In this document: positions 7,468 to 54,458 of the stretch, piece after piece
Layout of the letters: every line of letters starts with the position of its first letter
How positions within the stretch are numbered: position 1 is the first letter of the stretch
NCBI GenBank assembly: GCA_050258555.1
Contig: JBLMZA010000159.1
Location: 1,906 to 65,905 of the forward strand
DNA from: Acidobacteriota bacterium
GTDB taxonomy: Bacteria; Bacteroidota; Ignavibacteria; UBA10030; UBA8401
Length of the DNA: 64,000 bases
Reading direction: 5' to 3'
Made by a program: the position numbers and the translations under genes
Notes under the pieces: generated by a model
The model's database searches: none
The model's input: only the letters and a program-made list of their open reading frames with translations
Told to the model about the DNA's origin: nothing

Positions 7468-8961
7468 ATGTCGTTGAAATTTATGTCGGCTGAGGAAGCC
7501 GCAAGCCATATCAACCACGGCGATACCGTGGGCTTTTCAGGATTTACTCCCGCCGGTGCGGTGAAAGCCATACCGAAAGCCATCGCAGCGCGCGCCGTTG
7601 CATTCCATGCCGAAGGCAAGCCCTTCAAGATCGGCGTCATGACCGGCGCATCGACAGGCGACTCGCTCGACGGCCAGCTGGCCCGTGCCGAAGCGGTTTC
7701 GTTCCGTACGCCGTACCAGTCGAACGGAGACATGCGCAAGCTCATCAACAGCGGCAAGGCGGAATTTTTTGATATGCATTTGTCGCAGGTGGCGCCCAAC
7801 ATCCGGTTCGGCTTTTTCGGAAAGATCCATTGCGCCATCGTCGAAGCCTGCGACGTGAGCGAAAACGGCGAGATCGTTCTCACCTCGTCGGTGGGCAACA
7901 CGCCCACGTACTGCCGCGTGGCCGACAAGATCTTCATCGAACTCAACCGGAAACATCCCAAGGCATTGCGCGGCATGCACGATGTCTACGAGCCTGCCGA
8001 TCCGCCGTACCGCCGCGAGATACCGGTGTATGCGCCGTCGGACCGCATCGGCACGGAGGTCGTGAAAGTCGATCCGTCGAAGATCATCGGCATCGTCGAA
8101 ACGGATCTGCCGGATGAAAGCGGCAAGTTCGCCGAGAGCGATGAAGTGACGAACCGCATCGGCGAAAACGTCGCCGATTTTCTCGCGCGCGAGCTGAAGG
8201 ACGGACGCATTCCGTCGTCGTTCCTTCCCATCCAGTCCGGCGTGGGCAACATCGCCAACGCCGTGCTCGGCGCGCTGGGAGCGAATCCGCACATTCCGGC
8301 GTTCAATATGTATACGGAAGTGGTGCAGGACGCCGTGATCGAGCTCATGAAGAAGGACCGCGTGAAATTTGCGAGCACCTGCGCGCTCACGGTGAGTCCG
8401 GAAGTGCTGAGCGAGGTCTATTCGAACCTCGATTTCTTTCATTCGCGCGTCCTGCTTCGGCCGCAGGAGATCTCGAACAGCCCGGAAGTGGCGCGCCGCC
8501 TCGGCATCATCTCGATCAATACGGCGCTCGAAGCCGACATCTTCGGCAACGTGAATTCGACGCAGGTGCTGGGAAGCAAGATGATGAACGGCATCGGCGG
8601 ATCGGGTGACTTCACGCGCAACGCCTACATCTCGATCTTCACGTGCCCCTCGGTGGCCAAGGACGGCAAGATCAGCACGATCGTGCCGATGGCCTCGCAC
8701 GTCGACCACAGCGAACATTCGGTGCAGGTCTTGATCACCGAGCACGGCGTGGCCGATCTGCGCAGGAAATCGCCGAGCCAGCGCTTCGAAGCGATCCTGA
8801 ACAACTGCGTGCATCCTGAATACCGCGAGCAGCTGTGTGAATATTACAATCTCGGCGGAGCCGCGCACACGCAGCAGTCGCTGCATGCGGCCTTCGGCAT
8901 GCACGAGCAGTTCATGAAGACCGGGGATATGCGCAACGTGAACTGGGCGGAATACAAGTAA
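7468..8961 (+). CDS. Acetyl-CoA hydrolase/transferase family, succinate CoA-transferase (ScpC/AarC-like)
   Basis: GFSGFTPAG, GASTG, DMHLSQ, IQSGVGN, catalytic Glu in YTEVVQD, MMNGIGGSGDFTRNA, SHVDHSEH. Confidence 0.92.
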   Translation: MSLKFMSAEEAASHINHGDTVGFSGFTPAGAVKAIPKAIAARAVAFHAEGKPFKIGVMTGASTGDSLDGQLARAEAVSFRTPYQSNGDMRKLINSGKAEFFDMHLSQVAPNIRFGFFGKIHCAIVEACDVSENGEIVLTSSVGNTPTYCRVADKIFIELNRKHPKALRGMHDVYEPADPPYRREIPVYAPSDRIGTEVVKVDPSKIIGIVETDLPDESGKFAESDEVTNRIGENVADFLARELKDGRIPSSFLPIQSGVGNIANAVLGALGANPHIPAFNMYTEVVQDAVIELMKKDRVKFASTCALTVSPEVLSEVYSNLDFFHSRVLLRPQEISNSPEVARRLGIISINTALEADIFGNVNSTQVLGSKMMNGIGGSGDFTRNAYISIFTCPSVAKDGKISTIVPMASHVDHSEHSVQVLITEHGVADLRRKSPSQRFEAILNNCVHPEYREQLCEYYNLGGAAHTQQSLHAAFGMHEQFMKTGDMRNVNWAEYK

Positions 8962-9066: not shown

Positions 9067-10140
9067 ATGAACGAAATCAATTCCAAGTTGAACCGCATCG
9101 GGGTCTTCTACGACGGCAATTATTTTCTCCATGTCAGCAATTACTATAATTATTTCCATCCGCGCCGGAGCCGGCTGAGCATCGCCGGACTCCATGAATT
9201 CATCGAAGGGCAGGTGGCGAAGGAAGAGGGCACCGAGAAACGCCTCTGCCAGATCGTCGATGCGCATTACTTCCGCGGACGGCTCAACGCGCAGGAGGCG
9301 AGTCAGCGGGGCAACCAGCTCTACAACGACCGCGTCTTCGACGACGTGCTCATGAGCGAGGGCGTGACGACGCATTATCTTCCCCTCAAGAGCCGCTCCG
9401 GCAAGAAGGAGGAGAAGGGCATCGACGTCTGGCTCGCGCTCGAAGCCTACGAGCTCGCGATCTACAAGCGCTTCAACGTGGTCGTGCTCATTACGTCCGA
9501 CGGCGACTATGTCCCCTTGGTGCGCAAGCTCAACACGATCGGGACGCGGGTGATGGTGCTTTCATGGGACTTCGAGTATACGGACGATTCGGGGCAGAAG
9601 ATGGTCACGCGCACGTCGCAGGATCTGCTCGACGAGGTGACGTATCCCGTTCTCATGCACCAGCTGATCGACGACCGTGTGAAGCGCAGCGACATGCTCG
9701 TGAACAATCTCTTCATGCAGACGGACGGCTACAGCGGCTCGCGCGAGTATCGTGCCGCCGAGTCGAAGCCGCAGGTGAACAGAGGAAAGATCCTCAGCAT
9801 CAAAAACGGCTACGGCTTCATTGCGCTCGTGCCCAATAATTTATTTTTCCATTATACGGACGTTGTCGAGGGCGATTTCAACGAGATGCGCGAAGGGGAT
9901 ACCGTCGAGTATACGATCGGGCGGAACACGCGCGGAGAGGATGTCGCAAAGAATGTCCGGTTTGTGGCAGAAGCCTCTCCGGCCGCAACCGACACGGCCG
10001 ACGCCGCGGAAGGCCAGGCGTCCCGGCCGGCGCTGCCTATGCTGAGGGCAAACGGCAGCCAGGAGGCCGGAGCCGTTCCTCCGCAGGACTCGTCCGTGGC
10101 GGAAGGGGAAGCCCCGGCCGAAGAATCGCCGAAAGAGTGA
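9067..10140 (+). CDS. NYN (LabA/DUF88, PIN-like) domain protein with C-terminal cold-shock domain
   Basis: FYDGNY, EKGIDV, ITSDGDYVPL acidic motifs; CSD GKILSIKNGYGFI...LFFHY...GDTVEY...AKNV; disordered tail. Confidence 0.88.
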   Translation: MNEINSKLNRIGVFYDGNYFLHVSNYYNYFHPRRSRLSIAGLHEFIEGQVAKEEGTEKRLCQIVDAHYFRGRLNAQEASQRGNQLYNDRVFDDVLMSEGVTTHYLPLKSRSGKKEEKGIDVWLALEAYELAIYKRFNVVVLITSDGDYVPLVRKLNTIGTRVMVLSWDFEYTDDSGQKMVTRTSQDLLDEVTYPVLMHQLIDDRVKRSDMLVNNLFMQTDGYSGSREYRAAESKPQVNRGKILSIKNGYGFIALVPNNLFFHYTDVVEGDFNEMREGDTVEYTIGRNTRGEDVAKNVRFVAEASPAATDTADAAEGQASRPALPMLRANGSQEAGAVPPQDSSVAEGEAPAEESPKE

Positions 10141-10148
10141 ATTTAGTG

Positions 10149-10177
10149 TTGCACTTCATGGGTTTTTCCCGTATATT
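10149..10177 (+). promoter_or_regulatory. sigma70-type promoter of rpmE
   Basis: TTGCAC-N17-TATATT. Confidence 0.7.
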
Positions 10178-10214
10178 GCCAAGTAGGATTTAATTTGATC
10201 ATTGGAGAGTTGAC

Positions 10215-10439
10215 ATGAAAAACGATATCCATCCGACATACAAACATGCTGTCGTTCAGTGTATCTGCGGAAACACGTTCGAAACCCGCTCCACCGTCGG
10301 CAACATTCACGTCGAAATCTGCTCAAACTGCCACCCGTTCTACACGGGCAAGCAGAAGCTGATCGATTCGGCAGGCCGCGTCGAGCGCTTCAACAAGAAA
10401 TACGGCAAAAAGGCCGCCCCTGCGGAAGCAGCGGTGTAA
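10215..10439 (+). CDS. rpmE: 50S ribosomal protein L31 (Zn-binding type)
   Basis: [35 protein letters not shown]. Confidence 0.97.
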
Positions 10440-10469
10440 ATCGGCATGCGTGCGTGATGCGCGAAAAGC

Positions 10470-10505
10470 AACGGAATGTATCAACGATGCATTCCGTTTT
10501 TTTTC
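10470..10505 (+). terminator. Intrinsic terminator
   Basis: AACGGAATG...CATTCCGTT followed by a T-run. Confidence 0.75.
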
Positions 10506-10558
10506 GTACCTCATGTCCGGCGGCACTTTTCAACTACAGGCAGCGAAAGCACTGATGT

Positions 10559-11917
10559 ATGGACGGATTTGACGACAAGAAGGCGCTGTTTTCCGGCGTA
10601 CGCGGCACAGCGGTCAAAATATTGAACCGGGTCGAGCGGACCGACGCATATCTCGACAAGCTCCTCGATGCGGAACTCCGATCGTCCGACCTGAACGACC
10701 TAGACAAATCGCTTCTCACCGAGATCGTCACCGGCGTGCTCCGCTGGCAGATGAAATTGGACTGGGTGCTGAACGGCTTCTTCCACGGCAACTTTTCGAA
10801 AGCCGAAGTCACCGTGCGCAACGGACTCCGCACGGCGCTCTACCAGATCATGTTTCTGGACAAGATCCCGCATCATGCGGCGGTGAACGAGGCGGTGGAA
10901 TTCATCAAGCGCATACGCGGCGAAAAAGCCGGCAACCTCGTCAACGCCGTGCTCCGCACGATTCTCCGCAACCTCGACGGCATCCACTATCCCGATATCG
11001 CCAACGGTGCCGCCCAGTACCTTTCCGTGATGTACTCGCATCCGCTGTGGATGGTGCGCAGCTGGATGAACCGCTACGGCTACGCTGAAACGGAAAAGCT
11101 CCTGGCGGCGAACAACGCCAAGCCGCAGCTCACGCTCCGCATCAATACCGCCAAGACATCGATCGACCATTTCCTGGAGCTGCTGGCGCAGCAGAACATC
11201 GCCGTCGAGCGTTCGCGCTACATCGACACGTTCGTCAAGACGGCGACGCTGGCCAACCTTTCGCACACCGAACTCTTCCGGCAGGGATACGTTTCGGTGC
11301 AGGATGAAAGCGCCGGCATCGCCGCGTCGCTGCTCGATGCGCGGCCGGGCGAGCGGGTGATCGACCTCTGCGCCGCGCCCGGAGGCAAGACGACATTCAT
11401 CGGCGAGCGCATGCAGAACAAGGGCGTGATCGTGGCGGTCGACAAATACAGCACGCGGCTCGACCTGGTGCAGGAAAGCTGCGCCCGGCTCGGCATCACG
11501 AACGTGAAATGCGTCGCCGCCGACGGCGTCGAATTCGAAACGGAAGCGGCGGACAAGGTGCTGCTCGACGCGCCGTGCTCGGGCCTCGGCGTGCTCACGA
11601 AAAAGCCCGATGTGAAGATCAAGCGCGAGCAGAGCGATATCAGAAAGCTCGTCGAGATACAGCACCAGCTTATCGACCAGGCTTCATCGCTGGTGAAGCC
11701 GGGCGGCATGCTCATCTACAGCACATGCACGATCGAGCCCGACGAGAATTTTTCGGTGGTCCGGTGGTTCCTCCAGCGGCATCCGGAATTCGACATCGAC
11801 CATTCGATGCGGTCGGCGTACCCCGCGCTGATGCATGCAGACGGCTATATCGAAACATTTCCTTCGAAGCACGGCATGGACGGATCGTTTTCCATCAGGC
11901 TCCGAAAATCGTCCTGA
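10559..11917 (+). CDS. rsmB: 16S rRNA m5C967 methyltransferase (NusB + RsmB domains)
   Basis: NusB-like N-terminus (AAVNEAVE), YSHPLW, VQDES, DLCAAPGGKT, DAPCSG, YSTCT. Confidence 0.93.
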   Translation: MDGFDDKKALFSGVRGTAVKILNRVERTDAYLDKLLDAELRSSDLNDLDKSLLTEIVTGVLRWQMKLDWVLNGFFHGNFSKAEVTVRNGLRTALYQIMFLDKIPHHAAVNEAVEFIKRIRGEKAGNLVNAVLRTILRNLDGIHYPDIANGAAQYLSVMYSHPLWMVRSWMNRYGYAETEKLLAANNAKPQLTLRINTAKTSIDHFLELLAQQNIAVERSRYIDTFVKTATLANLSHTELFRQGYVSVQDESAGIAASLLDARPGERVIDLCAAPGGKTTFIGERMQNKGVIVAVDKYSTRLDLVQESCARLGITNVKCVAADGVEFETEAADKVLLDAPCSGLGVLTKKPDVKIKREQSDIRKLVEIQHQLIDQASSLVKPGGMLIYSTCTIEPDENFSVVRWFLQRHPEFDIDHSMRSAYPALMHADGYIETFPSKHGMDGSFSIRLRKSS

Positions 11918-39025: not shown

Positions 39026-40348
39026 GTGAAACTTTCTTCGCTGATAGGACATGCAATCGAGGCTGCGCTCGGCATCGAACACGAGCAGCGGCCCGCTGAT
39101 TCACTGATCGATTCATTTTTTCGTTCACGAAAATACCTCGGATCGCATGACCGCCGCTTCATCGCGGAAACGGTCTACGGCATGCTGAGATGGAAGCTCA
39201 CCCTCGATGCGATCGTCGAGCGCGCCGTTCCGGCCGAAGCGCGCATGGGGCGCGATCTTTTTTCGTCGAATCTCATCACGTACCGCTGCGCGGCGTATCT
39301 TCTGCGTTCGGTGCGGCATGATGCCGCCGAGCTCGCACAGGAGTTCCCGGAATCCGCGCGCGCATCTGTCATGGAAATCGCAGCCCACGCGGACGATGCA
39401 GTCGCCGTCGACGATCCCGTTCAGGGACTTTCGTATGCGGAATCGTTTCCCGAATGGATGGCGGCGCAATGGATCGGCCGCTACGGCCGGGAAGAAGCGG
39501 TGAAGCTCTGCCATGCGCTGAACGAAAATGCGCCGGTCACGCTGCGTGTGAACACCATCAAGGCCACGGTTGAAGAATGCCGCGCCGCGCTCAGCCGCGA
39601 AGGCGTGGAATCGGAACCGACGAAGCTGTCTCCGTTCGGATTGAACCTCCGGCGGCGCATCAATGTGTTCCAGCTCGCCGCATTCAAGGAGGGACTCTTC
39701 GAAGTGCAGGATGAGGGAAGCCAGCTCCTGGCTCTCCTTGTCGATCCGAAACCTTCGGCGAAGGTCGTGGATGCCTGCGCCGGCGCCGGCGGCAAGACGC
39801 TTGCGCTCGGAGCGGTGATGAAGAACCGCGGCGTGATCTATTCGATGGATGTGCACACCGGCAGGCTCGAAGAGCTGCGGAAGCGCCTCCGACGCAGCGG
39901 CGCCGATACGGTGCGCGTTCGCGTGGTGGACGGAGAGACGCTGCCGGATGATCTCGCCGGCATCGCCGATAATGTGCTGGTGGACGCGCCATGCTCGGGA
40001 CTCGGCACCATCCGCCGGAATCCCGGCATGAAGTGGAGCGTCACGCCCCAGGTTGTTGAAGAGATCAGCATGAAGCAGCATCGGATCCTCGATCTGTATT
40101 CGAAAGCCGTCAAACCCTGCGGCATTCTCGTCTATGCCACATGCACGACGATGAAGGCGGAAAATGAGGATGTGGTCGAAGCGTTTCTCGCAGCGCATCC
40201 CGAATTCACGCTCGAGGATCCGGCGAAGCGCCTCGCGCGCTACGGTCTCGAGACGCTCGTCGACAGTCACTATTTCCAGCTGCTTCCTCACCGGCATGAC
40301 ACGGATGGATTCTTTGCAGCCGTCATGAAAAAAACAGGAACCGTATGA
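39026..40348 (+). CDS. RsmB/NOP family RNA m5C methyltransferase (second paralog)
   Basis: YLGSHDRR N-terminus, EVQDEGSQ, DACAGAGGKT, DAPCSG, YATCT; GTG start. Confidence 0.9.
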   Translation: MKLSSLIGHAIEAALGIEHEQRPADSLIDSFFRSRKYLGSHDRRFIAETVYGMLRWKLTLDAIVERAVPAEARMGRDLFSSNLITYRCAAYLLRSVRHDAAELAQEFPESARASVMEIAAHADDAVAVDDPVQGLSYAESFPEWMAAQWIGRYGREEAVKLCHALNENAPVTLRVNTIKATVEECRAALSREGVESEPTKLSPFGLNLRRRINVFQLAAFKEGLFEVQDEGSQLLALLVDPKPSAKVVDACAGAGGKTLALGAVMKNRGVIYSMDVHTGRLEELRKRLRRSGADTVRVRVVDGETLPDDLAGIADNVLVDAPCSGLGTIRRNPGMKWSVTPQVVEEISMKQHRILDLYSKAVKPCGILVYATCTTMKAENEDVVEAFLAAHPEFTLEDPAKRLARYGLETLVDSHYFQLLPHRHDTDGFFAAVMKKTGTV

Positions 40349-41797: not shown

Positions 41798-42341
41798 ATT
41801 CAAAGATGAGTACCGCATACTCGATGTCGGCTGCGGGATGAGAAAGAGGGAAGGAGCAGTGGGCATCGATGTCAATCCGAGATCGGATGCCGACGTCGTC
41901 CACGATTTGAACATCACGCCGTATCCCTTCGTCTCGAATCACTTCGACGAAATCTGGTGCGACAATGTGCTCGAGCATCTGGACAACGTCGTGAAAGTGA
42001 TGGCGGAGCTTCACCGCATCGCAAAACCTTCGGCCAGACTCACCATCATCGTTCCGTTCTATCCTCACCGTCAGGCGAACACCGATCCGACGCATCTGCA
42101 TTGGTTCGGTTTCCATTCGTTCGATTACTTCACCTCCGGCAATTCCTATGCCGACTTCCGGTATTCCGGAGTCCGCTACGATCTGCTGTCGGCCGAATAC
42201 GAACGCGGACGTACGCCGCAGCACTGGCTCGACCGGATGATCAAGCGCTTCGCGAACCGGCATCCGGATCTCTACGAGAACCGCTTCGCCAATCTGTTTC
42301 CGCTGCGTTCTCTTACATTCGTCCTCAAAGCCGTGAAGTAG
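41790..42341 (+). CDS. Class I SAM-dependent methyltransferase (type 11)
   Basis: ILDVGCG, NVLEHL, HRIAKP, DPTH; TTG start overlapping the DUF58 stop. Confidence 0.8.
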   Translation: MVEFKDEYRILDVGCGMRKREGAVGIDVNPRSDADVVHDLNITPYPFVSNHFDEIWCDNVLEHLDNVVKVMAELHRIAKPSARLTIIVPFYPHRQANTDPTHLHWFGFHSFDYFTSGNSYADFRYSGVRYDLLSAEYERGRTPQHWLDRMIKRFANRHPDLYENRFANLFPLRSLTFVLKAVK

Positions 42342-42446
42342 CACGCCCTTGCGCGCAGCGGGGGAAGCCGCGTGCAAGGACAAAAAAAAACGGCGAGCGC
42401 AGCATGGAGTCTGCGCGCGCCGGGCATCAATCGTTCGGGAAGGATC

Positions 42447-42860
42447 TTACTTTTTCTCTTTGGGGCTTTTCGATTCCTTCGTGTCCTTCATTTCCTTCAT
42501 GTCCTTGGTGTCCTTCTTCGTCTTCAGTCCCTCGAGGTAGGACGCCAGTTCCTTCAGATCGGTTTCGGAGCCGCTGAATTTCATTCCATGCTTCTTGCCG
42601 TGCAGGTCCGTTTCCTTCTTCAGATATTTTTCGATATCATCGGCCTTCATGTCAGCGCCCACGGCGGAGAGGTCGGGGGGACCGGCTTTCGTGACGGCGC
42701 CTTTTTTGGCGATGCCATCCGACTGGATGGAATGGCATTGGTTGCATTTCTTGTCAAGGAATACCTGCTTTCCCTTCGGCGTGTCTTTCGACGAAGAATC
42801 TTCCGCCCAGGCCGTGCCGATGACGAAAAGGCTGACGAGCAACGCAAGTGTGAGTTTCAT
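42447..42860 (-). CDS. Periplasmic monoheme cytochrome c with Lys-rich repetitive tail
   Basis: Signal peptide, CNQCH heme motif, GPPDL, HGKKHGMKF candidate distal ligand. Confidence 0.85.
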   Translation of the reverse strand: MKLTLALLVSLFVIGTAWAEDSSSKDTPKGKQVFLDKKCNQCHSIQSDGIAKKGAVTKAGPPDLSAVGADMKADDIEKYLKKETDLHGKKHGMKFSGSETDLKELASYLEGLKTKKDTKDMKEMKDTKESKSPKEKK

Positions 42861-43051
42861 GTGTCTTTCCTCCTTAGATTGTGTGAATGGTCTCTTCCGG
42901 TCCGTGACGCAATGGAACCCGGCGTTGATGGAGCCTGTGCGATCCAATGATAGTGGAATATACAATGACGGAGACTGACAAGCAAAGGAATAATTAAGAG
43001 AAAATTGTCCGACATGAACGATTCAGGCGGCCGCCGGGCGTCGGGGCGGAC

Positions 43052-43095
43052 TTGACTATAAAATATCGAAAGTTTAATATTTATCGAATTTATAG
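43052..43095 (+). promoter_or_regulatory. sigma70-type promoter overlapped by an imperfect inverted repeat (putative operator)
   Basis: TTGACT-N17-TAATAT (43052-43080); CTATAAAATATCGA...TCGAATTTATAG. Confidence 0.55.
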
Positions 43096-43107
43096 AAAGA
43101 TCAGGCA

Positions 43108-43167
43108 ATGGCATCCATACTCTCCTCCTCCCAGAAACAATTCATCGAAGAGATGGGCAATCTCTAA
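43108..43167 (+). pseudogene. Possible N-terminal remnant of a GbsR/MarR-type regulator (or a leader peptide): MASILSSSQKQFIEEMGNL*
   Basis: First ATG after the promoter; QFIEEMG resembles the first helix of GbsR-family regulators; stops after 19 codons. Confidence 0.3.
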
Positions 43168-43277
43168 GGCGGCAGGAGGCAGGAACGCGGGAACGTCGAA
43201 CGAAGTTGTCATAGAAGGTGCGGAATGTGTTCCGTCCAAGGAAAAAATTCCGAAATCAACAAAAATACGGTCCTTTT

Positions 43278-44270
43278 ATGAAACGATATGCGCGCATTAC
43301 GGCAACGGGACGATACATACCCGAGAAGATCGTCACGAATGCCGACCTGGATGAAATGCTGGGAGAGAATGTCGGGGACTGGCTTGTCGAGAATGTCGGC
43401 ATTCAGGAACGGCATGTGATGGCCCCGGAACAGACCACATCGGACATGGTCGTGGCTGCGGCGCATCAGGCGCTTCAGCGCGCCGGACTGCTTCCCGAAG
43501 AGCTCGATCTGATCATCGTTGCCACGGACACGCCCGATTATATCAGTCCGGCCACAGCTTCTGCGGTGCAGGCCAAGCTCAGCGCGAAGAACGCTGGCAC
43601 GTTCGACATCAACTGCGCCTGCGCCGGATGGGTGACGGCGCTCGACATGGCCGCACGCTATATTGCCACAGACACGGTCTACAAGCACATTCTTGTGGCC
43701 GGCGGATACGGCATGACGAAGTTCATCGATTGGAAGGATAAATACACCTGCACGCTCTTTGCCGACGGCGCAGCATGCGCCATCGTGAGTCAGAGCGACA
43801 CGCCGGGACATCTGGCCGGAAAGCTGAGCGCCGAGGGATCCTATCATGACGCCATGGGAATCTATACCGGCGGCACATACCGGCCCGCGACGCCGCAAGC
43901 GGTAAAGAAGACAGGGAAGCCGCGCGTCGAATTCGTCCGCAAGCTTCCCGCGACATTCAACAGCGACAACTGGCCCGAACTGATCCGCGCGGTCGTGGCG
44001 AAGGCCGGCATCTCGGTGGATGATGTGGGGCTCTTCCTCTTCACGCAGCTCAATCTCCGCACGATCGAGTTCGTGATGGAGAACCTGAAGCAGCCGATGT
44101 CGAAGACGCACTGGATCATGGACAAGTGGGGATACATCGGATCGGCATGCATACCCGCGGCGCTCGACGACGTGATCGAAAACGGCCGCGATCCGAAGCC
44201 GGGCGAATATATCGTCTTCTGCGCCACTGGCGGCGGCATGGCAATGGCATGCTCATTATGGAAATGGTGA
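43278..44270 (+). CDS. FabH/KAS III-like protein with non-canonical catalytic residues
   Basis: FabH scaffold (GIQERH, ATDTPD, FDINCACAG, LFADGA, GGG) but FTQLN and GYIGSAC replace PHQAN and GNTSAAS. Confidence 0.88.
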   Translation: MKRYARITATGRYIPEKIVTNADLDEMLGENVGDWLVENVGIQERHVMAPEQTTSDMVVAAAHQALQRAGLLPEELDLIIVATDTPDYISPATASAVQAKLSAKNAGTFDINCACAGWVTALDMAARYIATDTVYKHILVAGGYGMTKFIDWKDKYTCTLFADGAACAIVSQSDTPGHLAGKLSAEGSYHDAMGIYTGGTYRPATPQAVKKTGKPRVEFVRKLPATFNSDNWPELIRAVVAKAGISVDDVGLFLFTQLNLRTIEFVMENLKQPMSKTHWIMDKWGYIGSACIPAALDDVIENGRDPKPGEYIVFCATGGGMAMACSLWKW

Positions 44271-44312
44271 CGGCACACGACTCTCTCTTTCTCTGGAAAG
44301 GACAATAACACA

Positions 44313-45593
44313 ATGACCACACGAAAACTCGGACGGGGCGTTGCACTCGTGGGAGCCGGCATGAGCCGGTTCGGGGCGTTTCCCGGCAAGAGCACGCGCG
44401 ATCTGCTTGCGGAAGCCTATCGCGACATGATACAGACGGTGGACCGCGGATTCGATCCGAATGCGGTTCAGGCGCTCTACATCGGCAATTTTTCAAGCGA
44501 GCTGTTTGAAGGGCAGGGACACACCGCGCCGATCATGGCCGACTGGCTGGGACTGTCGAATCGTCCCGCAACGCGCGTGGAGAATGCGTGCGCAAGCGGC
44601 GGCTCGGCGCTTCGCGAGGCGGTGCTGGCAATCGCCTCGGGCATCTACGATGTCGTGCTCGTGGGCGGCATCGAAAAGATGACGGATCTGCCGATCGAAC
44701 GTGTCACCGACGCGCTTGCCACCGCCGGAGACACGCTCTTCGAAATCCCGTCGGGATTCACATTCCCCGCATTTTATGCGACGATGGCGGCGGCCTATCT
44801 CGCGCGTTATGAAGCCGCGAAAGGGAAATCGGGCGCCGATGCGCTGCTGGCCGTGGGCATGAAGAATCATGCGAACGGCAGGCTCAATCCCAAGGCGCAT
44901 ATCGGCATGAGCATCTGCGACGTGATGGAAGGGAAGAAAGCCGCTGCGGTGAAGAAGGGCAAGCCTGTTCCCGAATGGAATACGGAGATGGAATTTCTGC
45001 TCGATGAGCGCGCCAATCCGATGATCGCATGGCCGCTACGTCTTTTCGACTGCTCCCCGGTATCGGATGGAGCGGCGAGTCTCCTGTTGGTGAGCGAGGA
45101 ACTGGCCTCGTCGTTTTCCGAGACGCCGCTGCACATCATCGGCACGGGACAAGCCAGCGACAGTCCGCTGCACAGCCGGCCCGATATCACGACGCTCCGC
45201 TCGGCGCGTCTTGCAGCGAATCAGGCATACGATCTTGCACAGGTGACGCCGGCCGATATCAGCGTGGCCGAAGTGCACGACTGCTTTACGATTGCCGAAG
45301 TGATCGCAACCGAAGACCTCGGATTCTTCGGGCCCGGCCAGGGTGGCGTTGCGGCGATCGAAGGCGTGACCGCGTTGCGCGGAGCGCGTCCTGTCAACAC
45401 ATCGGGAGGATTGAAATCGAAAGGCCATCCGGTCGGCGCTTCGGGCGTGGCGCAGGCGGTGGAGATGTGGAAGCAGCTCCGGGGGGAAGCCGGCATGCGC
45501 CAGGCTCCCGGCGACATCCGTCTCGGTCTCACGCATAACGTGGGCGGAACGGGACAGACAACCGTCGTGCATATTTTTGAAAGGAGAAAGTAA
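44313..45593 (+). CDS. Thiolase family protein (archaeal / SCP2-type, HDCF)
   Basis: ENACASG, GIEKMTD, DCSPVSDGAA, EVHDCFT, NTSGGLKSKGHPVGASG, HNVGG. Confidence 0.92.
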   Translation: MTTRKLGRGVALVGAGMSRFGAFPGKSTRDLLAEAYRDMIQTVDRGFDPNAVQALYIGNFSSELFEGQGHTAPIMADWLGLSNRPATRVENACASGGSALREAVLAIASGIYDVVLVGGIEKMTDLPIERVTDALATAGDTLFEIPSGFTFPAFYATMAAAYLARYEAAKGKSGADALLAVGMKNHANGRLNPKAHIGMSICDVMEGKKAAAVKKGKPVPEWNTEMEFLLDERANPMIAWPLRLFDCSPVSDGAASLLLVSEELASSFSETPLHIIGTGQASDSPLHSRPDITTLRSARLAANQAYDLAQVTPADISVAEVHDCFTIAEVIATEDLGFFGPGQGGVAAIEGVTALRGARPVNTSGGLKSKGHPVGASGVAQAVEMWKQLRGEAGMRQAPGDIRLGLTHNVGGTGQTTVVHIFERRK

Positions 45594-45594
45594 G

Positions 45595-46011
45595 ATGGCG
45601 GCATCGATGATCACGACAGAAACCACCATACAGGACCGTGCAGCGCAGAGGTTGACCGGAAGCCGTTCAGCCGACGGAAAAACGATCTTCGTTCCGGCGC
45701 GTCCAATCGATCCCGCCGATCCGCTGGCGGAACTCGAAACGGTTGAACTCAGCGGCAGGGGAACGCTTGTCTCGTTTTCCGTCGTCCCCGTTGCCTCTTC
45801 AGAGATGATCGCGGCCGGATACGGCAGGGACAATCCCCATGCGGTCGGCATCGTCCGGCTCGAAGAGGGGCCGTGCATCAGCGCGCAGATCATCGGCATC
45901 GACATGAAGCATCCGGACACGGTGGCGCCCGGATTGGCAATGAAGGCGGAATTCATCGAGCGCACCGCCGGCGCAACGAAAAAAATCGTTCTCGCATTCC
46001 GTCCCGCATAA
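45595..46011 (+). CDS. DUF35 / ChsH2-like OB-fold protein lacking the Zn-ribbon cysteines
   Basis: ELSGRGTLVSFSVV, PHAVGIVRLEEGP OB-fold; the knuckle positions read RSADG and IDPAD. SD AAGGAG upstream. Confidence 0.82.
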   Translation: MAASMITTETTIQDRAAQRLTGSRSADGKTIFVPARPIDPADPLAELETVELSGRGTLVSFSVVPVASSEMIAAGYGRDNPHAVGIVRLEEGPCISAQIIGIDMKHPDTVAPGLAMKAEFIERTAGATKKIVLAFRPA

Positions 46012-46032
46012 CATCGATCGGAAAGAAAAAAC

Positions 46033-48060
46033 ATGACCCGGATGATCCTGCTTTGTACCGCTTTCCTGCTTTTGCAATCCACCCTTCCTGCCGAATGGAA
46101 ACAGATCGACGGTCCGTATGGCGGACCTGTCAACGCAATGACGATGGTCGGCAGCGTCATTCTTGCGGGAACGAATGGGGCGGGAGTTTTCCGGTCTACA
46201 GATCTGGGCGCCTCATGGTCGCAAACCGACCTGAATAACGTTTCCGTACTTTCTTTGACCAGGCAGAGCGATCGTGTCTTGGCCGGTACGGACAAAGGAA
46301 TATTTGTATCGGGCGACGGCGGGATCCATTGGTCACCGATTACTCCTGAAGGTTCGCCGATGTATGCCGCGGCCATCGCGTGCGTCGGGACCCATCTTTA
46401 TGCCGGCCTATTCGGAGGAATGCTTCGCTCATCCGACGATGGCGCCACATGGAATCCGGTCGATGGCGTGCCGTCCTCGGTGTGGATCAACGCTATCACG
46501 TCACTGGGCGGGACGATCTTCGTCGGCACGAATGGAAGCGGCGTGTACCGGTCGACGGACAGCGGGAAGACGTGGACCAGCGTGCGGACCGGCCTGACAA
46601 ACCTCACGGTCGGTGCGATCGCCGCGGCTGGAAACACGATCCTTGCCGGAACGGGCCACGGCGTATTCCGTTCGACGGATAACGGGACGACATGGAAACC
46701 GACAGAGTTTCCGAATGAAGAAGTCCGCGCCGTGGCATTTTCCGGGACAAAAGTCTATGCGGCTTCTTCACGAAGCGTCTATCAATCTGCAGACGACGGC
46801 GCGACATGGCTGTCGATGAACTTCCCGAGTCAGTATAACCCCCACATCCAGGCGATCGCCGTCTACGGATCGAAAATCTTTACCGGCACGAACGTGGGAG
46901 TGATCATGACGTCCACCGGCGGCATCAGCTGGACGCAAGCCAACACCGGTCTGAACAATCTTCCCATCGGCAGTCTTGCCGTCGCCGGATCGGTTACCTA
47001 TGCCGGTTCCGATTATCAATCCTATTCCTCATCCGATCAGCGGAAGCACTGGGTTCCGATGGGGCTCACCGGGTCTGTCAGAGGATTCGTACCGATCGGT
47101 GATACGCTCTTTGCCGGGATATCGGGAGGCGGAGTGATGCGTCACCCGGACATCTGGATGTTCTGGGAACAGGCCATCAATGGCATGACCAACATCGATG
47201 TGTCGTGTCTTCTGTCGCATCGCGGCAGGCTGATTGCCGGCACAGCCGGAGGCATTTTCATTTCTTCCGATAAGGGAGCATCGTGGACAGCCTCCAATTC
47301 GGGACTTGCCAATGTCATGGTGAATGCCGTCGTCGTCAACGATACGGAGATGTATGCGGGAACCAATGGCGGCGTCTATCGATCGTCCGATGGCGGAACG
47401 ACGTGGGGCTCGGCAGGCACCGGCGTTGCCGGCCGGAAGATCAACTCGCTTGCGATTGCCGGACGCGATGTGTACGCCGGAACAGAGCATGGCGTCTATC
47501 ATTCGGCAGACCGGGGGAGCAGCTGGGAGCAGTCCGGAAACTCGGTGCTGACGATGCCGGTGCTCTGTCTTGTTGAAAGCGGATCGCTGATCTTTGCCGG
47601 AACACTGCGGAAGGGCGTCTATATGTCCGCCGACCACGGAACGACCTGGACGTCATGCGGAATGGCTGACATGACCATCAACTGCATGGCGTTCGACGGC
47701 AGCGATCTTCTTGCCGGCACACAAGGAAGAGGCGTGTGGTCCCGCTCTCTGTCTGAGATGGTCACGCATGCGGACGCTGTGGCCGCATCCGTACCCGATC
47801 GAATGCTGCTGTATCAGAATTATCCGAATCCATTCAATCCTCAGACGACCATCGCTTTTACCCTCGCCGATCGTACGCAGGTCTTGCTGCATATCGTGAA
47901 TGCGCTCGGCGAGGAAATCGCCACACTTGAGTCGGGAGATTTGTCGCGTGGGACCTACACGCGTGTATGGAATGCCGCCGGATTACCGAGCGGCGTGTAT
48001 TTCTGCCGTCTGCGTGCGGGCACTGCTTCGGTCACGCGAAAGCTGATGTTTCTTCAATGA
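46033..48060 (+). CDS. Secreted BNR/Asp-box beta-propeller protein with T9SS-type C-terminal domain
   Basis: Signal peptide; repeated AGTxxGVYRSxDxGxTW; C-terminal QNYPNPFNPQT...LPSGVYFCRL. Confidence 0.85.
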   Translation: MTRMILLCTAFLLLQSTLPAEWKQIDGPYGGPVNAMTMVGSVILAGTNGAGVFRSTDLGASWSQTDLNNVSVLSLTRQSDRVLAGTDKGIFVSGDGGIHWSPITPEGSPMYAAAIACVGTHLYAGLFGGMLRSSDDGATWNPVDGVPSSVWINAITSLGGTIFVGTNGSGVYRSTDSGKTWTSVRTGLTNLTVGAIAAAGNTILAGTGHGVFRSTDNGTTWKPTEFPNEEVRAVAFSGTKVYAASSRSVYQSADDGATWLSMNFPSQYNPHIQAIAVYGSKIFTGTNVGVIMTSTGGISWTQANTGLNNLPIGSLAVAGSVTYAGSDYQSYSSSDQRKHWVPMGLTGSVRGFVPIGDTLFAGISGGGVMRHPDIWMFWEQAINGMTNIDVSCLLSHRGRLIAGTAGGIFISSDKGASWTASNSGLANVMVNAVVVNDTEMYAGTNGGVYRSSDGGTTWGSAGTGVAGRKINSLAIAGRDVYAGTEHGVYHSADRGSSWEQSGNSVLTMPVLCLVESGSLIFAGTLRKGVYMSADHGTTWTSCGMADMTINCMAFDGSDLLAGTQGRGVWSRSLSEMVTHADAVAASVPDRMLLYQNYPNPFNPQTTIAFTLADRTQVLLHIVNALGEEIATLESGDLSRGTYTRVWNAAGLPSGVYFCRLRAGTASVTRKLMFLQ

Positions 48061-50767: not shown

Positions 50768-50796
50768 TTGCATTTCCCGCCGTCATTGAATATCTT
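50768..50796 (+). promoter_or_regulatory. sigma70-type promoter of uvrA
   Basis: TTGCAT-N17-TATCTT. Confidence 0.55.
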
Positions 50797-50878
50797 TTAT
50801 GTATGCGTTGTACCGGACCGGATGTGATGCCGACTTTGACAGACGATCAAAAATCTTCTCTTTTTCGAAAAAATTCAC

Positions 50879-53764
50879 TTGGCAGATACGAATAAAGCAA
50901 TCAGTTCCGCGGAAAACCTGCTTGTCATCAAGGGGGCGCGCGAACATAATCTGAAAAACATCGACGTCGATATCCCGCGCGACAAACTGGTGGTCATCAC
51001 CGGGTTGTCGGGATCGGGGAAATCGAGCCTTGCCTTCGACACGATTTACGCGGAAGGGCAGCGCCGATACGTCGAAACGCTGTCGGCCTACGCCCGCCAG
51101 TTTCTCGGCATCATGGAACGGCCGGACCTCGATTATATCGAGGGACTGAGTCCCGCCATTTCCATCGAACAGAAAACCGTCAGCCACAATCCGCGTTCCA
51201 CCGTCGGCACCGTGACGGAGATCTACGATTTCCTGCGCCTGCTTTATGCGCGCGCGGGCACGCAGTTCTGCGTGCAGTGCGGCGGCCGTGTCCAGAAACA
51301 GAGCGTCGACCAGATCATCGATGCCGTCATGGCGCTGCCGCAGAACTCGAAGATTCAGGTGCTCGCTCCGGTCGTGAAGGGACGCAAGGGACATTACCGC
51401 GAGCTCTTCGAGCAGATCGTCAAGGATGGATTCCTTCGCGTCCGCGTCGACGGCGAAGTGAAGGAAATCACGAAGGGGATGAAGGCCGACCGCTACAAGA
51501 TCCACAATATCGAGATTGTGGTCGACCGGCTCATCATTTCGCCGACCATCCGCTCGCGCGTGGCCGATTCGGTCGAAATGGCGCTGCAGTTCGGCGAGGG
51601 CGTGCTCATCATCAACGACGGGAAGACCGACACGCTCTACAGCAAGCATTATTCCTGCCCCGTCTGCAACATCAGCTACGAAGAACCGGCTCCGAACTCG
51701 TTCTCGTTCAATACGCCGTTCGGCGCATGTCCGACCTGTCAGGGACTCGGCGAGATGCACGCCTTCGACATGTCGCTCATCATCCCCGACGATTCGCTCT
51801 CGATACAGGAGGAAGGCATCGCTCCGCTGGGAAAGCCGCGCTCGACGTGGTTCTTCAGCCAGGTGACTGCGGTGCTGCACAAGTACGGGTATGACTTCAC
51901 GACGCCGATCAGGGAGATGAGCAAGGAAGCGTTCAGCGTGCTCATGAACGGTACGGGCCGCGAAAAAATCGAGATCGTCTACACCTATGCCGGCGGGCGG
52001 ACGGCGGTCTACAAGCACCGCTACGACGGCGTGATGGGCATGCTCGAGCGCTATTACGAGAATACCGCATCGCCGAAGATCCGCGAATGGGTCGAAGGCT
52101 TCATGAGCACGAAGCCCTGCAGCGAATGCAAGGGGGGCAGACTCAAGAAGGAATCGCTTGCCGTGCGTCTCGAGCGGACCGATTCGGATGAGCGAAATTC
52201 CATCGCGGACATCGTGCAGCTCTCGCTCACCGAAGCCGAAGAACTCTTCCGGACCATTACGCTTTCGGAGCGGAAGATGGAAATCGCCCGCCCGATCCTG
52301 AAAGAAATCAATCAGCGCCTGAAATTCCTTGTCGATGTCGGACTGGGCTATCTGTCGCTCGACCGCACCAGCCGCACTCTTTCGGGTGGCGAGGCGCAGC
52401 GCATCCGGCTCGCCACGCAAATCGGCTCCCAGCTCGTCGGCGTGCTCTACATTCTGGACGAGCCGTCGATCGGTCTCCATCAGCGCGACAACGACAAGCT
52501 CATTGCCTCACTCAAGCAGCTGCGCGATCTTGGCAACAGCGTGATCGTCGTCGAGCACGACAAGGAAATGATGGAGCAATCCGATTATGTCGTCGATCTG
52601 GGACCCGGAGCGGGCGAGCACGGTGGAGTGGTTGTGGCCGCAGGGCCGCCGGCGAAGCTGAAGTCCATGAAGGGATCGAACGGCGCATCGGCGACGACCG
52701 ATTATCTGAGCGGACGGAAGGCGATCGAGATCCCCGGTGCGCGGCGCGCCGCATCGGACCGCTTTCTTGTTCTGTCGGGCGCCGAAGGCAATAACCTCAA
52801 GAGTCTCACATTGAAGATTCCCCTCGGGCTCTTCGTCTGCATCACCGGCGTGAGCGGCTCGGGCAAGTCGTCGCTCATCAACGAGACATTGTATCCGATC
52901 CTCGCGAAAAAATTCTACAAGGCGAAGCTTCCCACGCTTCCCTACAAATCGTTCAAGGGCATCGACGAGATCGACAAGGTGATCGAGATCGACCAGTCTC
53001 CCATCGGCCGCACGCCGCGCTCGAATCCGGCCACGTACACCGGCATGTTCACCATGATCCGCGATCTCTTCACGCAGCTGCCCGAATCGAAGATCCGCGG
53101 CTACAAGCCCGGTCGCTTCAGCTTCAATGTGAAGGGAGGGCGGTGCGAAGCCTGCGAAGGAGACGGCGTGAAGAAGATCGAGATGAATTTCCTGCCGGAC
53201 GTGTATGTGGAATGCGACGTCTGCCGCGGTGCGCGCTACAACCGCGAGACGCTCGAAGTGCATTACAAGGGCAAATCGATCGCCGATGTGCTCGAGATGA
53301 CGGTCGAAGAGGCGCTCGAATTCTTCAGCGAGCTGCCGACGATACAGCGCAAACTGCAGACGCTCTACGACGTCGGTCTCGGCTACATCCACCTGGGCCA
53401 GCAGGCAACCACGCTCTCCGGCGGCGAGGCGCAGCGCGTGAAGCTCTCGACGGAGCTTTCGAAGATCGGCACGGGCAACACGCTCTACATCCTCGACGAG
53501 CCCACAACAGGACTCCATTTTGACGACGTGAAGATGCTCTTGTCCGTCCTCAACAAGCTCACGGACAAGGGCAATACAGTGATCGTGATCGAGCACAATC
53601 TCGATGTGATCAAGACCGCCGACTGGATCATCGATCTCGGTCCCGAAGGCGGGAAAGCCGGAGGCACGATCGTCGCCGAAGGCACGCCGGAATCGGTCGC
53701 AGCGGTCAAGGAATCGCACACCGGCCGGTATCTGAAGAAGGAATTGCATCCGGCACACAATTGA
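50879..53764 (+). CDS. uvrA: Excinuclease ABC subunit A
   Basis: GAREHNLKN, GLSGSGKSS, AEGQRRY, LSGGEAQRI, GVSGSGKSS, RTPRSNPATY, LDEPTTGLH; TTG start. Confidence 0.98.
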   Translation: MADTNKAISSAENLLVIKGAREHNLKNIDVDIPRDKLVVITGLSGSGKSSLAFDTIYAEGQRRYVETLSAYARQFLGIMERPDLDYIEGLSPAISIEQKTVSHNPRSTVGTVTEIYDFLRLLYARAGTQFCVQCGGRVQKQSVDQIIDAVMALPQNSKIQVLAPVVKGRKGHYRELFEQIVKDGFLRVRVDGEVKEITKGMKADRYKIHNIEIVVDRLIISPTIRSRVADSVEMALQFGEGVLIINDGKTDTLYSKHYSCPVCNISYEEPAPNSFSFNTPFGACPTCQGLGEMHAFDMSLIIPDDSLSIQEEGIAPLGKPRSTWFFSQVTAVLHKYGYDFTTPIREMSKEAFSVLMNGTGREKIEIVYTYAGGRTAVYKHRYDGVMGMLERYYENTASPKIREWVEGFMSTKPCSECKGGRLKKESLAVRLERTDSDERNSIADIVQLSLTEAEELFRTITLSERKMEIARPILKEINQRLKFLVDVGLGYLSLDRTSRTLSGGEAQRIRLATQIGSQLVGVLYILDEPSIGLHQRDNDKLIASLKQLRDLGNSVIVVEHDKEMMEQSDYVVDLGPGAGEHGGVVVAAGPPAKLKSMKGSNGASATTDYLSGRKAIEIPGARRAASDRFLVLSGAEGNNLKSLTLKIPLGLFVCITGVSGSGKSSLINETLYPILAKKFYKAKLPTLPYKSFKGIDEIDKVIEIDQSPIGRTPRSNPATYTGMFTMIRDLFTQLPESKIRGYKPGRFSFNVKGGRCEACEGDGVKKIEMNFLPDVYVECDVCRGARYNRETLEVHYKGKSIADVLEMTVEEALEFFSELPTIQRKLQTLYDVGLGYIHLGQQATTLSGGEAQRVKLSTELSKIGTGNTLYILDEPTTGLHFDDVKMLLSVLNKLTDKGNTVIVIEHNLDVIKTADWIIDLGPEGGKAGGTIVAEGTPESVAAVKESHTGRYLKKELHPAHN

Positions 53765-53807
53765 AAACAGGAATCTCACACACATCCATGGAAGGAATTG
53801 CAGCACG

Positions 53808-54458
53808 ATGGACACAAGGCCGATCATCGTTTCATCCCGCACTCGTTGTACATGCATCGACGCATTGAGCGAACGATATTTTTATGACACACCCATGCCT
53901 GCCTCGCTCATGATGGCCGATGGAACGCAGGCGCCGCAGGCGATTTCAACGGATTTCAGGATCGACTATACGGATGAAGGGCTGATCGTGCTGTTCAGGG
54001 GCAAGTTCGAGCGGCTTCGCTGCGCCGAAGGCCTTGATGTGGAAGAAGGGACAGGAAAGTCGCACGGGCTGTGGATGCACAGCGACGTGTATGAGATCTT
54101 CATCGGCCCGAACGCGCGAGGCACGGGACTCTACAAGGAGTTTCAGGTGTCGCCCGATGGCCGGTTCATCGATATCAGCGTCAACCGCGCTGAGGGCAAG
54201 TCGGACACGAGCTGGAGATCGGGGATGAAGTGCCGGTCGTTCGTCAATGACGCGAAAAAAACATGGTGCGCCGCCATGGAGCTGCCCTGGAACTGTTTCG
54301 ATACGGATTATCGTTCAGATTGTGAATGGAATGCGAATGTGTATCGCGCAACGGGAAACTATCATGGCGATGAACTGCTTGCATGGTCTGCAACGGGATG
54401 CGGAGACGGTGCCTTTCACCGGTATGAACAATTCGGAAGAATCATTTTTGAAAAATAA
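53808..54458 (+). CDS. Carbohydrate-binding family 9-like / DOMON-like domain protein
   Basis: DVYEIFI, YKEFQVSPDG, WCAAMELPW, WNANVYR, LAWS...FHRYEQFG. Confidence 0.7.
   Translation: MDTRPIIVSSRTRCTCIDALSERYFYDTPMPASLMMADGTQAPQAISTDFRIDYTDEGLIVLFRGKFERLRCAEGLDVEEGTGKSHGLWMHSDVYEIFIGPNARGTGLYKEFQVSPDGRFIDISVNRAEGKSDTSWRSGMKCRSFVNDAKKTWCAAMELPWNCFDTDYRSDCEWNANVYRATGNYHGDELLAWSATGCGDGAFHRYEQFGRIIFEK

Follow-up and report, generated by a model that had tools for sequence, protein, structure and literature searches.

A FabH-fold protein with a rebuilt active site encoded beside a thiolase-DUF35 pair in a bacterium of Ignavibacteria type

Can an enzyme derived from FabH, the beta-ketoacyl-acyl carrier protein (ACP) synthase III (KAS III), plug into a thiolase-DUF35 scaffold, and what would such an enzyme do to simple CoA thioesters? 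These questions are opened by three consecutive genes in a 64,000-nucleotide stretch of contig JBLMZA010000159.1 (GenBank assembly GCA_050258555.1, positions 1,906 to 65,905 of the forward strand), which is referred to here as the window. Thiolase-DUF35 cores have been shown to recruit 3-hydroxy-3-methylglutaryl-CoA (HMG-CoA) synthase (HMGS), PhlA or MucA as third enzymes (PMC12960953), and in Sulfolobus acidocaldarius a ketothiolase/DUF35 core recruits a ketoacyl-CoA reductase and a MaoC dehydratase (Schmerling et al. 2024, bioRxiv 10.1101/2024.07.05.601840). A sequence-only reading of the window had described the three genes as tightly linked, and the coordinates of the open reading frames (ORFs) agree, with a gap of 42 nt between the first gene (F) and the second (T), and of 1 nt between T and the third gene (D). 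The features of the trio are the following:

43278-44270, plus strand: F, a protein of 330 amino acids with the KAS III (FabH) fold (ORF call, Pfam/NCBIfam)
44271-44312, plus strand: the 42-nt spacer between F and T, occupying the site of the 1.57-kb acyl-CoA ligase gene of relatives (alignment to locus L003)
44313-45593, plus strand: T, an archaeal/SCP2-type beta-ketoacyl-CoA thiolase of 426 amino acids (ORF call, Pfam/NCBIfam)
45595-46011, plus strand: D, a DUF35 scaffold protein of 138 amino acids with the OB fold intact (ORF call, Pfam)

The family placement of F was assessed by domain models, sequence matches and structure prediction. Pfam assigned the domains ACP_syn_III and ACP_syn_III_C, and F passed the PRK09352 model marginally (252.3 bits, cut-off 249) and failed TIGR00747 fabH (231.1 bits, cut-off 292.1). 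The hidden Markov models (HMMs) of HMGS scored far under their cut-off (55.8 bits against 244), and the closest Protein Data Bank (PDB) entry by sequence was Aquifex FabH (2ebd, 1e-53), with OleA reaching only 2e-12; the sequence-only reading had likewise called F FabH-like rather than HMGS-like. The AlphaFold2 (AF2) model of F had a predicted local distance difference test (pLDDT) score of 89.9 and a predicted template modelling (pTM) score of 0.90, and its top structural matches were FabHs, with template modelling (TM) scores of 0.89-0.92. F thus resembles the FabH/KAS III enzymes of known structure (E. coli 1hn9, Aquifex 2ebd, N. meningitidis 4ryb) in fold (TM about 0.9), sequence (30-35% identity), Cys nucleophile and Gly-rich oxyanion loop. 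It differs from them in having Thr and Tyr for His244 and Asn274 and a new Asp at the site of the HMGS Glu, in lacking a type II fatty-acid synthesis context, and in that the usual partner of its clade is an acyl-CoA ligase and not ACP.

A HMMER alignment revealed how the active site of F has been rebuilt. The nucleophile Cys115 is kept, the FabH motif HQAN reads TQLN (Thr256 for His), and GNTSAAS reads GYIGSAC (Tyr286 for Asn), in agreement with the earlier observation of a retained Cys and lost His and Asn. F carries neither the Cys-His-Asn triad of FabH nor the Glu-Cys-His-Asn tetrad of HMGS; an Asp stands at the Glu position, and the Cys is retained. In FabH, the His/Asn pair drives the decarboxylation of malonyl-ACP, and because this pair is lost F is predicted to be unable to act as a FabH. 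The search for F homologues covered 1.8 billion representatives at 50% identity, and one search returned more than 6,000 database matches. All full-length matches at or above 224.8 bits carried the Cys and the Tyr, and all but one, which has Asn, carried the Thr; the first Cys-His-Asn FabH appeared at 216.6 bits, and the canonical FabHs lay from there down, at no more than 38% identity to F. At 50% identity, the Cys-Thr-Tyr clade splits into at least 20 clusters; it reaches about 33% identity to F and shows the three residues in 83 of the 84 relatives taken from genome contigs.

Comparison of the clade with canonical FabHs yielded ten clade-specific residues, each at least 94% conserved: D84, N112, G194, P224, N228, W232, T256, Y286, G288 and C291. 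Of these, seven show no variation at all among the representatives, and nine (all but N112) show none in a second alignment of 26 sequences; the window F carries D84, C115, T256, Y286, C291, N228 and W232 of the clade set. When the clade and canonical FabHs were aligned with ten archaeal-type HMG-CoA synthases from thiolase-linked loci, D84 shared a column with the catalytic Glu of HMGS (GSESHPY), where FabH has Ile, Ser, Ala or Val. This Glu is the enolising and hydrolytic base of HMGS, and the presence of an invariant Asp at its position strengthens the idea of non-decarboxylative condensing chemistry. Judged by its residues, F is a rewired member of an old, conserved clade (Asp84-Cys115-Thr256-Tyr286-Cys291) and not a decayed FabH. 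The combination of a FabH fold, a lost decarboxylation dyad and a carboxylate at the HMGS base site leads to the prediction that F forms an acyl-Cys enzyme and works without the decarboxylation machinery, as extrapolated from established mechanisms of the thiolase superfamily. Proteins of the clade are usually named 'ketoacyl-ACP synthase III' or FabH in databases, and a literature search (DUF35 with FabH, DUF35 with Anaerolineae, and non-decarboxylative KAS III) found no characterised member of the Asp-Cys-Thr-Tyr clade.

T contains the domains Thiolase_N and Thiolase_C_1 and matches PRK06064 ('thiolase domain-containing protein') at 421 bits (cut-off 420). The motifs of a thiolase are all present, namely C93 (CxS), H322-D-C324-F (HDxF) and H372 (GHx), and this upholds the earlier statement that T is catalytically complete. 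The closest PDB entry to T is 6esq_A (1e-77), from the archaeal thiolase/HMGS/DUF35 complex, and PhlC is matched far more weakly (2e-27). T is 47% identical to an HMGS-linked archaeal-type thiolase, relative to which it has an insert of 27 residues at about 199-225 (44907-44987), CDVMEGKKAAAVKKGKPVPEWNTEMEF; thiolases linked to F are about 420 amino acids long, as opposed to about 390 for HMGS-linked ones. Against NF053570, the model of archaeal-type acetoacetyl-CoA thiolases, T scored 395 bits (cut-off 600).

D contains only OB_ChsH2_C (PF01796), that is, the OB half of DUF35, and its closest PDB entry by sequence is 6esq_E (1e-6). Where relatives read RCxxCG...PPRxxCPxC, D reads RSADG...PARPIDPAD, so that the four zinc-ribbon Cys are replaced by Ser, Asp, Asp and Asp at unchanged spacing, as had been noticed from the sequence in the remark that D is devoid of zinc cysteines. 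The AF2 model of D has a pLDDT of 88, and of 84-90 over the former ribbon, and its top structural matches are the DUF35 subunits of Ltp2-ChsH2, 6esq (chains E/F, root-mean-square deviation 1.8 A), MucABC, PhlABC and BbsAB. A census of the ribbon in 62 D relatives found all four Cys in 48, half of them lost in 6, and all lost in 6. The Cys-less set consists of the window, its twin L083, L003, L102, L088 and L030, and the six half-lost ribbons hold two Cys. In each Cys-less D the third Cys has become Asp ('PRPIDP' or 'PRPLDP') and the first Ser or Asn, the window site being 45661-45720. The recurrence of the Cys-less ribbon in several relatives, together with the confident model, indicates that the zinc-free D is a recurrent variant and not a defect specific to the window.

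The origin of the trio was traced by comparison with its closest relative, locus L003 of an Ignavibacteriae metagenome-assembled genome (MAG), in which the gene order is hydrolase, second KAS III, short-chain dehydrogenase/reductase (SDR), ligase, hydrolase, F, ligase, T and D. Amino-acid identity between the window and L003 is 80% for F, 80% for T and 63% for D. The 3' end of the window F and the 5' end of T align to the end of F and the start of T in L003, with the 1.57-kb ligase between them reduced to 42 nt; both Ignavibacteriota relatives retain the ligase. These data demonstrate that the tight trio arose through loss of the ligase gene and that the 42-nt spacer is the deletion scar. An independent Logan assembly (L083) has an arrangement identical to that of the window trio, and a contig from a soil DNA run (44169-44363) covers the F-T junction with 0 mismatches. 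The match of the trio to the 3' part of the L003 cluster speaks against a chance arrangement. No homologues of the cluster ligases, SDR, hydrolases or second KAS III were found in the 64-kb window. Among 79 taxonomically assigned sequences in the F tree, 75 are from Chloroflexota, and the window groups with 2 from Ignavibacteriota (Shimodaira-Hasegawa-like approximate likelihood ratio test, SH-aLRT, 95); the DnaG encoded in the window is of Bacteroidota/Ignavibacteriales type. The grouping of F and the type of DnaG together point to one transfer of a whole cluster from Chloroflexota, followed by reduction in the window genome. Our best reading is thus that the trio is a lineage-specific reduction of a Chloroflexota-wide acyl-CoA cluster that an Ignavibacteria-type bacterium acquired horizontally.

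The neighbourhoods of F relatives revealed what the trio was reduced from. Close relatives of F are encoded on about 200 genome contigs, nearly all from Chloroflexota (Anaerolineae, Caldilineales, Ardenticatenaceae), and the two nearest are Ignavibacteriae MAGs. Flank sufficient for the downstream gene was available in 72 loci, and 36 full-flank loci were used to score T within 8 kb. An acyl-CoA ligase gene lies directly 3' of F in 67 of the 72 loci, and a more distant version of the cluster, L084, has a CoA-transferase in the place of the ligase after F. Of the 36 full-flank loci, 13 have T no more than 8 kb from F (12/20 in the closer F subclade, 1/16 in the farther one), and F directly abutting T was seen in no other locus surveyed, only in the window lineage. 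The wider cluster encodes a FabG-like SDR, a second ligase, two or three alpha/beta hydrolases, a second KAS III (PRK06840), and a Liv-type binding protein with an ABC transporter; T-D is often a member, and a MaoC dehydratase, a crotonase and a BTAD/TPR regulator are occasional ones. Altogether, these data do not support the idea of a conserved three-gene machine: in relatives the cluster extends to an importer, two ligases, a reductase, hydrolases and hydratases, and the lone trio is a peculiarity of the window genome.

The wider cluster also gave rise to several minor observations. The second KAS III, for example at L003 3415-4458 (PRK06840, 420 bits), keeps the Cys, has His for the FabH Asn and has lost the His of HQAN; since it too deviates at the His/Asn sites, both KAS III paralogues of the wider cluster are non-canonical. 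The ligase that follows F in L003 (8972-10561) has as its closest PDB entries 8weu ('fatty-acyl-CoA synthase') and 8wev (feruloyl-CoA synthetase), at about 1e-108, and these matches hint that the family may act on acids of the aromatic or hydroxycinnamate type. The hydrolases are weakly similar to polyhydroxybutyrate (PHB) depolymerases, and PHB or 3-hydroxyalkanoate oligomers could be guessed at as the wider-cluster substrate. An Ole-type olefin/beta-lactone pathway was considered for the wider cluster and rejected: the SDR is of the FabG and not the OleD kind, the ligases are acyl-CoA ligases of the ordinary sort, FabH is a much closer match than OleA to both KAS III proteins, and the clusters contain importers. 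No OleA-type Cys-His-Asn plus Glu protein and no OleB, OleC or OleD (3-beta-HSD type) partner was found in the 64-kb window. Separately, the window encodes a butyryl-CoA:acetate / succinate CoA-transferase at 7468-8961 on the plus strand (NF053666, 843 bits, cut-off 740), 35 kb away from the trio; at the level of the broad CoA-transferase superfamily, this enzyme is related to the one that stands in for the ligase in L084.

To approach the link between F and T-D from the other side, 80 metagenome loci were fetched with T as the query, and a maximum-likelihood tree of 96 thiolases was built. T and D are paired in every thiolase-centred locus. One clade of 38 thiolases (SH-aLRT 97), which includes the window T, contains all 29 F-linked thiolases, 2 unlinked ones with adequate flank and 7 with too little flank; when only the thiolase-centred, and hence unbiased, loci of this clade are counted, about 7-8 are F-linked and 2 unlinked. 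The HMGS-linked archaeal-type thiolases form a separate clade. By this tree, the T-D lineage is dedicated to F clusters and found almost only there, although many F clusters do without it. Such dedication supports a shared pathway, although a shared complex is not thereby shown.

Evidence for expression and selection was then gathered. A soil and a sediment metatranscriptome yielded contigs with exact or near-exact matches to F, T and D, those to F being exact, and a soil metatranscriptome contig (44182-44351, 0 mismatches) runs from F through the spacer into T. Between the window and L003, dN/dS is lowest for T (0.08), followed by F (0.14) and D (0.21); these values are rough, with dS near saturation and a comparison that spans more than the branch after the ligase loss. 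These data indicate that the trio is a real, transcribed operon and that F, T and D are under purifying selection. A contig from the sediment metatranscriptome (45839-46093) begins inside D, passes its stop codon (46011) and enters a gene for a BNR/sortilin-like protein with a type IX secretion system (T9SS) tail (46033), so the operon may be read through into the unrelated secreted-protein gene 3' of D.

Several characterized systems share parts with the trio, and the likenesses and differences bear on its function. In the archaeal complex of Methanothermococcus thermolithotrophicus (6esq), the thiolase has retained all three motifs (CxS, HDxF and GHx) and is the closest PDB match to T, the DUF35 subunit leads the sequence matches of D and fits the D model at 1.8 A, the thiolase and DUF35 genes are translationally coupled, and the third gene encodes a Cys enzyme of the thiolase superfamily with a carboxylate base. 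The third protein of the window is, however, FabH-derived (Asp-Cys-Thr-Tyr) and not an HMGS (Glu-Cys-His-Asn), D has no zinc site, T has the 27-residue insert, and the window trio, known from genes and single-protein models, lies outside any mevalonate context. PhlACB of P. protegens (5m3k) and MucABC of S. macacae (9vbo/9vbt) have the same three-part architecture of thiolase-like, DUF35 and KAS III-C-domain proteins; their thiolase-like subunit, however, acylates small acceptors within polyketide synthase/non-ribosomal peptide synthetase (PKS/NRPS) clusters, and PhlC and MucB, the Friedel-Crafts enzymes, do not have HDxF (PMC12960953), whereas T is of the true thiolase type. The Sulfolobus complex likewise joins other CoA enzymes to a thiolase-DUF35 core, and relatives of the window cluster carry a FabG-like SDR and a MaoC dehydratase; the Sulfolobus complex has no KAS III-like component, though, and the window itself has neither SDR nor dehydratase.

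The general domain class of the trio has been catalogued before. Liao et al. (2026) mined bacteria for PF08541, PF00108 and PF01796 and reported 1,030 loci, 1,001 of them without secondary-metabolism partners (PMC12960953). These orphan loci and the trio have the same three Pfam domains, have no secondary-metabolism partners, keep HDxF and possess a third unit without the Glu-Cys-His-Asn tetrad. The sequence-only reading had singled out the trio as a candidate new system; its domain class was thus already on record, and the Asp-Cys-Thr-Tyr clade was not described in the literature searched. The P. fluorescens PfACAT/HMGS-DUF35 complex combines an HDxF thiolase with an HMGS-like unit devoid of the tetrad, and it performs acetoacetyl-CoA thiolysis only (PMC12960953). 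That third unit resembles HMGS, is fused to DUF35 and is considered catalytically inactive, whereas F is a separate protein of the FabH clade, and the strictly conserved alternative residue set of F argues that F, unlike the P. fluorescens unit, is active. As a side observation, L093 encodes at 9860-10846 a distant HMGS-like protein (30% identity to archaeal HMGS), after and not before its thiolase-DUF35 pair; this locus probably belongs to the orphan HMGS/ACAT/DUF35 set reported by Liao et al.

With modest confidence, we favor the reading that the trio acts in one CoA-thioester pathway, with T-D as a thiolase and F as a predicted non-decarboxylative acyl-Cys enzyme that would share consecutive intermediates with it. 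T and D would constitute a working beta-ketoacyl-CoA thiolase that performs thiolysis or, in reverse, the Claisen condensation of two CoA thioesters, and D would be the structural scaffold of T. F would accept an acyl group from an acyl-CoA onto Cys115, with Asp84 as the putative general base and Thr256 and Tyr286 as hydrogen-bond donors, and would catalyse either an addition of the aldol or Claisen type, the reverse of such an addition, or hydrolysis of the acyl-enzyme; its substrate would be a beta-ketoacyl-CoA made or consumed by T-D. Several observations weigh against this reading. The constant partner of F is a CoA-activating enzyme (the ligase in 67/72 loci, the CoA-transferase in L084) and not T-D; T is not within 8 kb in 23 of the 36 full-flank loci, including 15 of the 16 in the distant F subclade, and in many genomes F evidently functions with no thiolase gene beside it. 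The loss of cluster genes applies to the 64-kb window, and a ligase or reductase may lie elsewhere in the genome; DNA carry-over is possible in the contigs from RNA libraries, and the dN/dS values are rough, as noted above. Moreover, F-DUF35 and F-thiolase fusions were absent among the over-long representatives (P0135, P0150, P0204 and others), where one F/hydrolase chimera looks like a frameshift artefact, and neither HMGS nor PhlA structures appeared among the best 60 of 71 sequence matches or the top 50 structure matches of F, which counts in particular against F, T and D forming a complex.

That stronger proposal, in which F, T and D would form one stable complex resembling archaeal thiolase/HMGS/DUF35 or PhlACB/MucABC, with F dimers in the place of HMGS or PhlA and channelling of a beta-ketoacyl-CoA from one of the enzymes T and F to the other, is by analogy attractive, yet we regard it as doubtful. 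T and D are closest in sequence and structure to subunits of solved complexes, F shares the thiolase-superfamily dimer fold of HMGS and PhlA and has an acidic residue at the HMGS Glu site, the T-D lineage is specific to F clusters, and reduction of the cluster left exactly F, T and D together and co-transcribed; however, F belongs to the FabH clade and not to that of HMGS or PhlA, most F genes have no T-D nearby, and the window D has lost its zinc ribbon, so that the scaffold part differs from the D subunits of solved complexes. The sequence-only reading had taken the trio for such an acyl-CoA channelling complex; the nearness of T and D to the archaeal subunits, the Asp at the HMGS Glu site and the F-linked T-D lineage speak for that interpretation, but the idea of a conserved trio did not hold. 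It is unlikely that the genes are accidental neighbours joined by the ligase deletion, with F a decaying orphan and T-D an independent, ordinary acetoacetyl-CoA thiolase. The usual ligase of F is gone and none is found elsewhere in the window, the F-T adjacency is unique to the window lineage, and T is very like plain archaeal-type acetoacetyl-CoA thiolases (the NF053570 score given above), but F is intact, with all clade-invariant residues and a dN/dS of 0.14, RNA contigs match it exactly, the order F, ligase, T, D already exists in L003, and the T-D lineage is tied to F clusters. Replacement of HMG-CoA synthase by F, which would make the trio an entry to the mevalonate pathway, is very improbable: the gene order does recall the archaeal HMGS-thiolase-DUF35 arrangement (L150), and F has the Cys and an Asp at the Glu site, but the tetrad His and Asn are absent, the archaeal enzyme no longer forms HMG-CoA once its whole tetrad has been replaced (PMC12960953), F scores far below the HMGS HMM cut-off, and the family context consists of importer, ligases and hydrolases, with no mevalonate genes near the trio. 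A PhlACB/MucABC-type Friedel-Crafts C-acyltransferase acting on a small aromatic or tetramic-acid acceptor is just as improbable; the three domain families are identical and the PhlC, PhlB and MucC chains are detectable relatives, but T keeps the HDxF that is lost in PhlC and MucB, which makes an acyltransferase unlikely, no PKS/NRPS genes adjoin the trio, and the archaeal thiolase is a far closer match to T than PhlC is (1e-77 as opposed to 2e-27).

The pathway reading has consequences beyond the window. Because members of the clade are predicted to be unable to perform the FabH reaction, their naming as FabH would contaminate inferences about fatty-acid synthesis in Chloroflexota and other phyla. 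The conserved replacement residues and the carboxylate at the HMGS base site point to unexplored chemistry in the thiolase superfamily, and we tentatively suggest that the Asp-Cys-Thr-Tyr(-Cys) KAS III proteins could be a new catalytic class of that superfamily, forming or cleaving C-C bonds on CoA thioesters without decarboxylation and with an HMGS-like base, and that the window F might dock on a thiolase-DUF35 core. If so, F on a thiolase-DUF35 core would be a third architecture beside the HMGS type and the PhlA/MucA type. The window trio would be the simplest natural test bed, as its three genes stand without the ligase, reductase, hydrolases and transporter found around them elsewhere.

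The surroundings of the trio were annotated by Pfam/NCBIfam. Upstream of F lies the following region:

42966-43277, no strand assigned: intergenic region between a divergent cytochrome c gene and F (sigma-70-like matches)

Sigma-70-like matches upstream of F were found at 42965-42994 and 43052-43081, and the promoter of the trio probably sits in this intergenic region, judging from those matches; a scan of 42300-46500 with Rfam for regulatory RNA gave zero matches. On the 5' side, the trio is preceded by the cytochrome c gene (minus strand), a DUF58 gene and an RsmB-like gene, and on the 3' side it is followed by two genes for T9SS-tailed secreted proteins (T9SS cargo), all unrelated to the trio. 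Domain annotation of the flanking genes found no mevalonate or PKS/NRPS genes adjoining the trio, and the earlier statement that adjacent mevalonate or PhlD-type genes are absent was correct. Elsewhere in the window, two minus-strand ORFs of 565 and 449 amino acids without an NCBIfam match overlap a 961-amino-acid plus-strand ORF at 50783-53857. The window also encodes two RsmB-like 16S rRNA m5C967 methyltransferase paralogues on the plus strand, at 10559-11917 (471 bits) and 39026-40348 (317 bits, cut-off 319).

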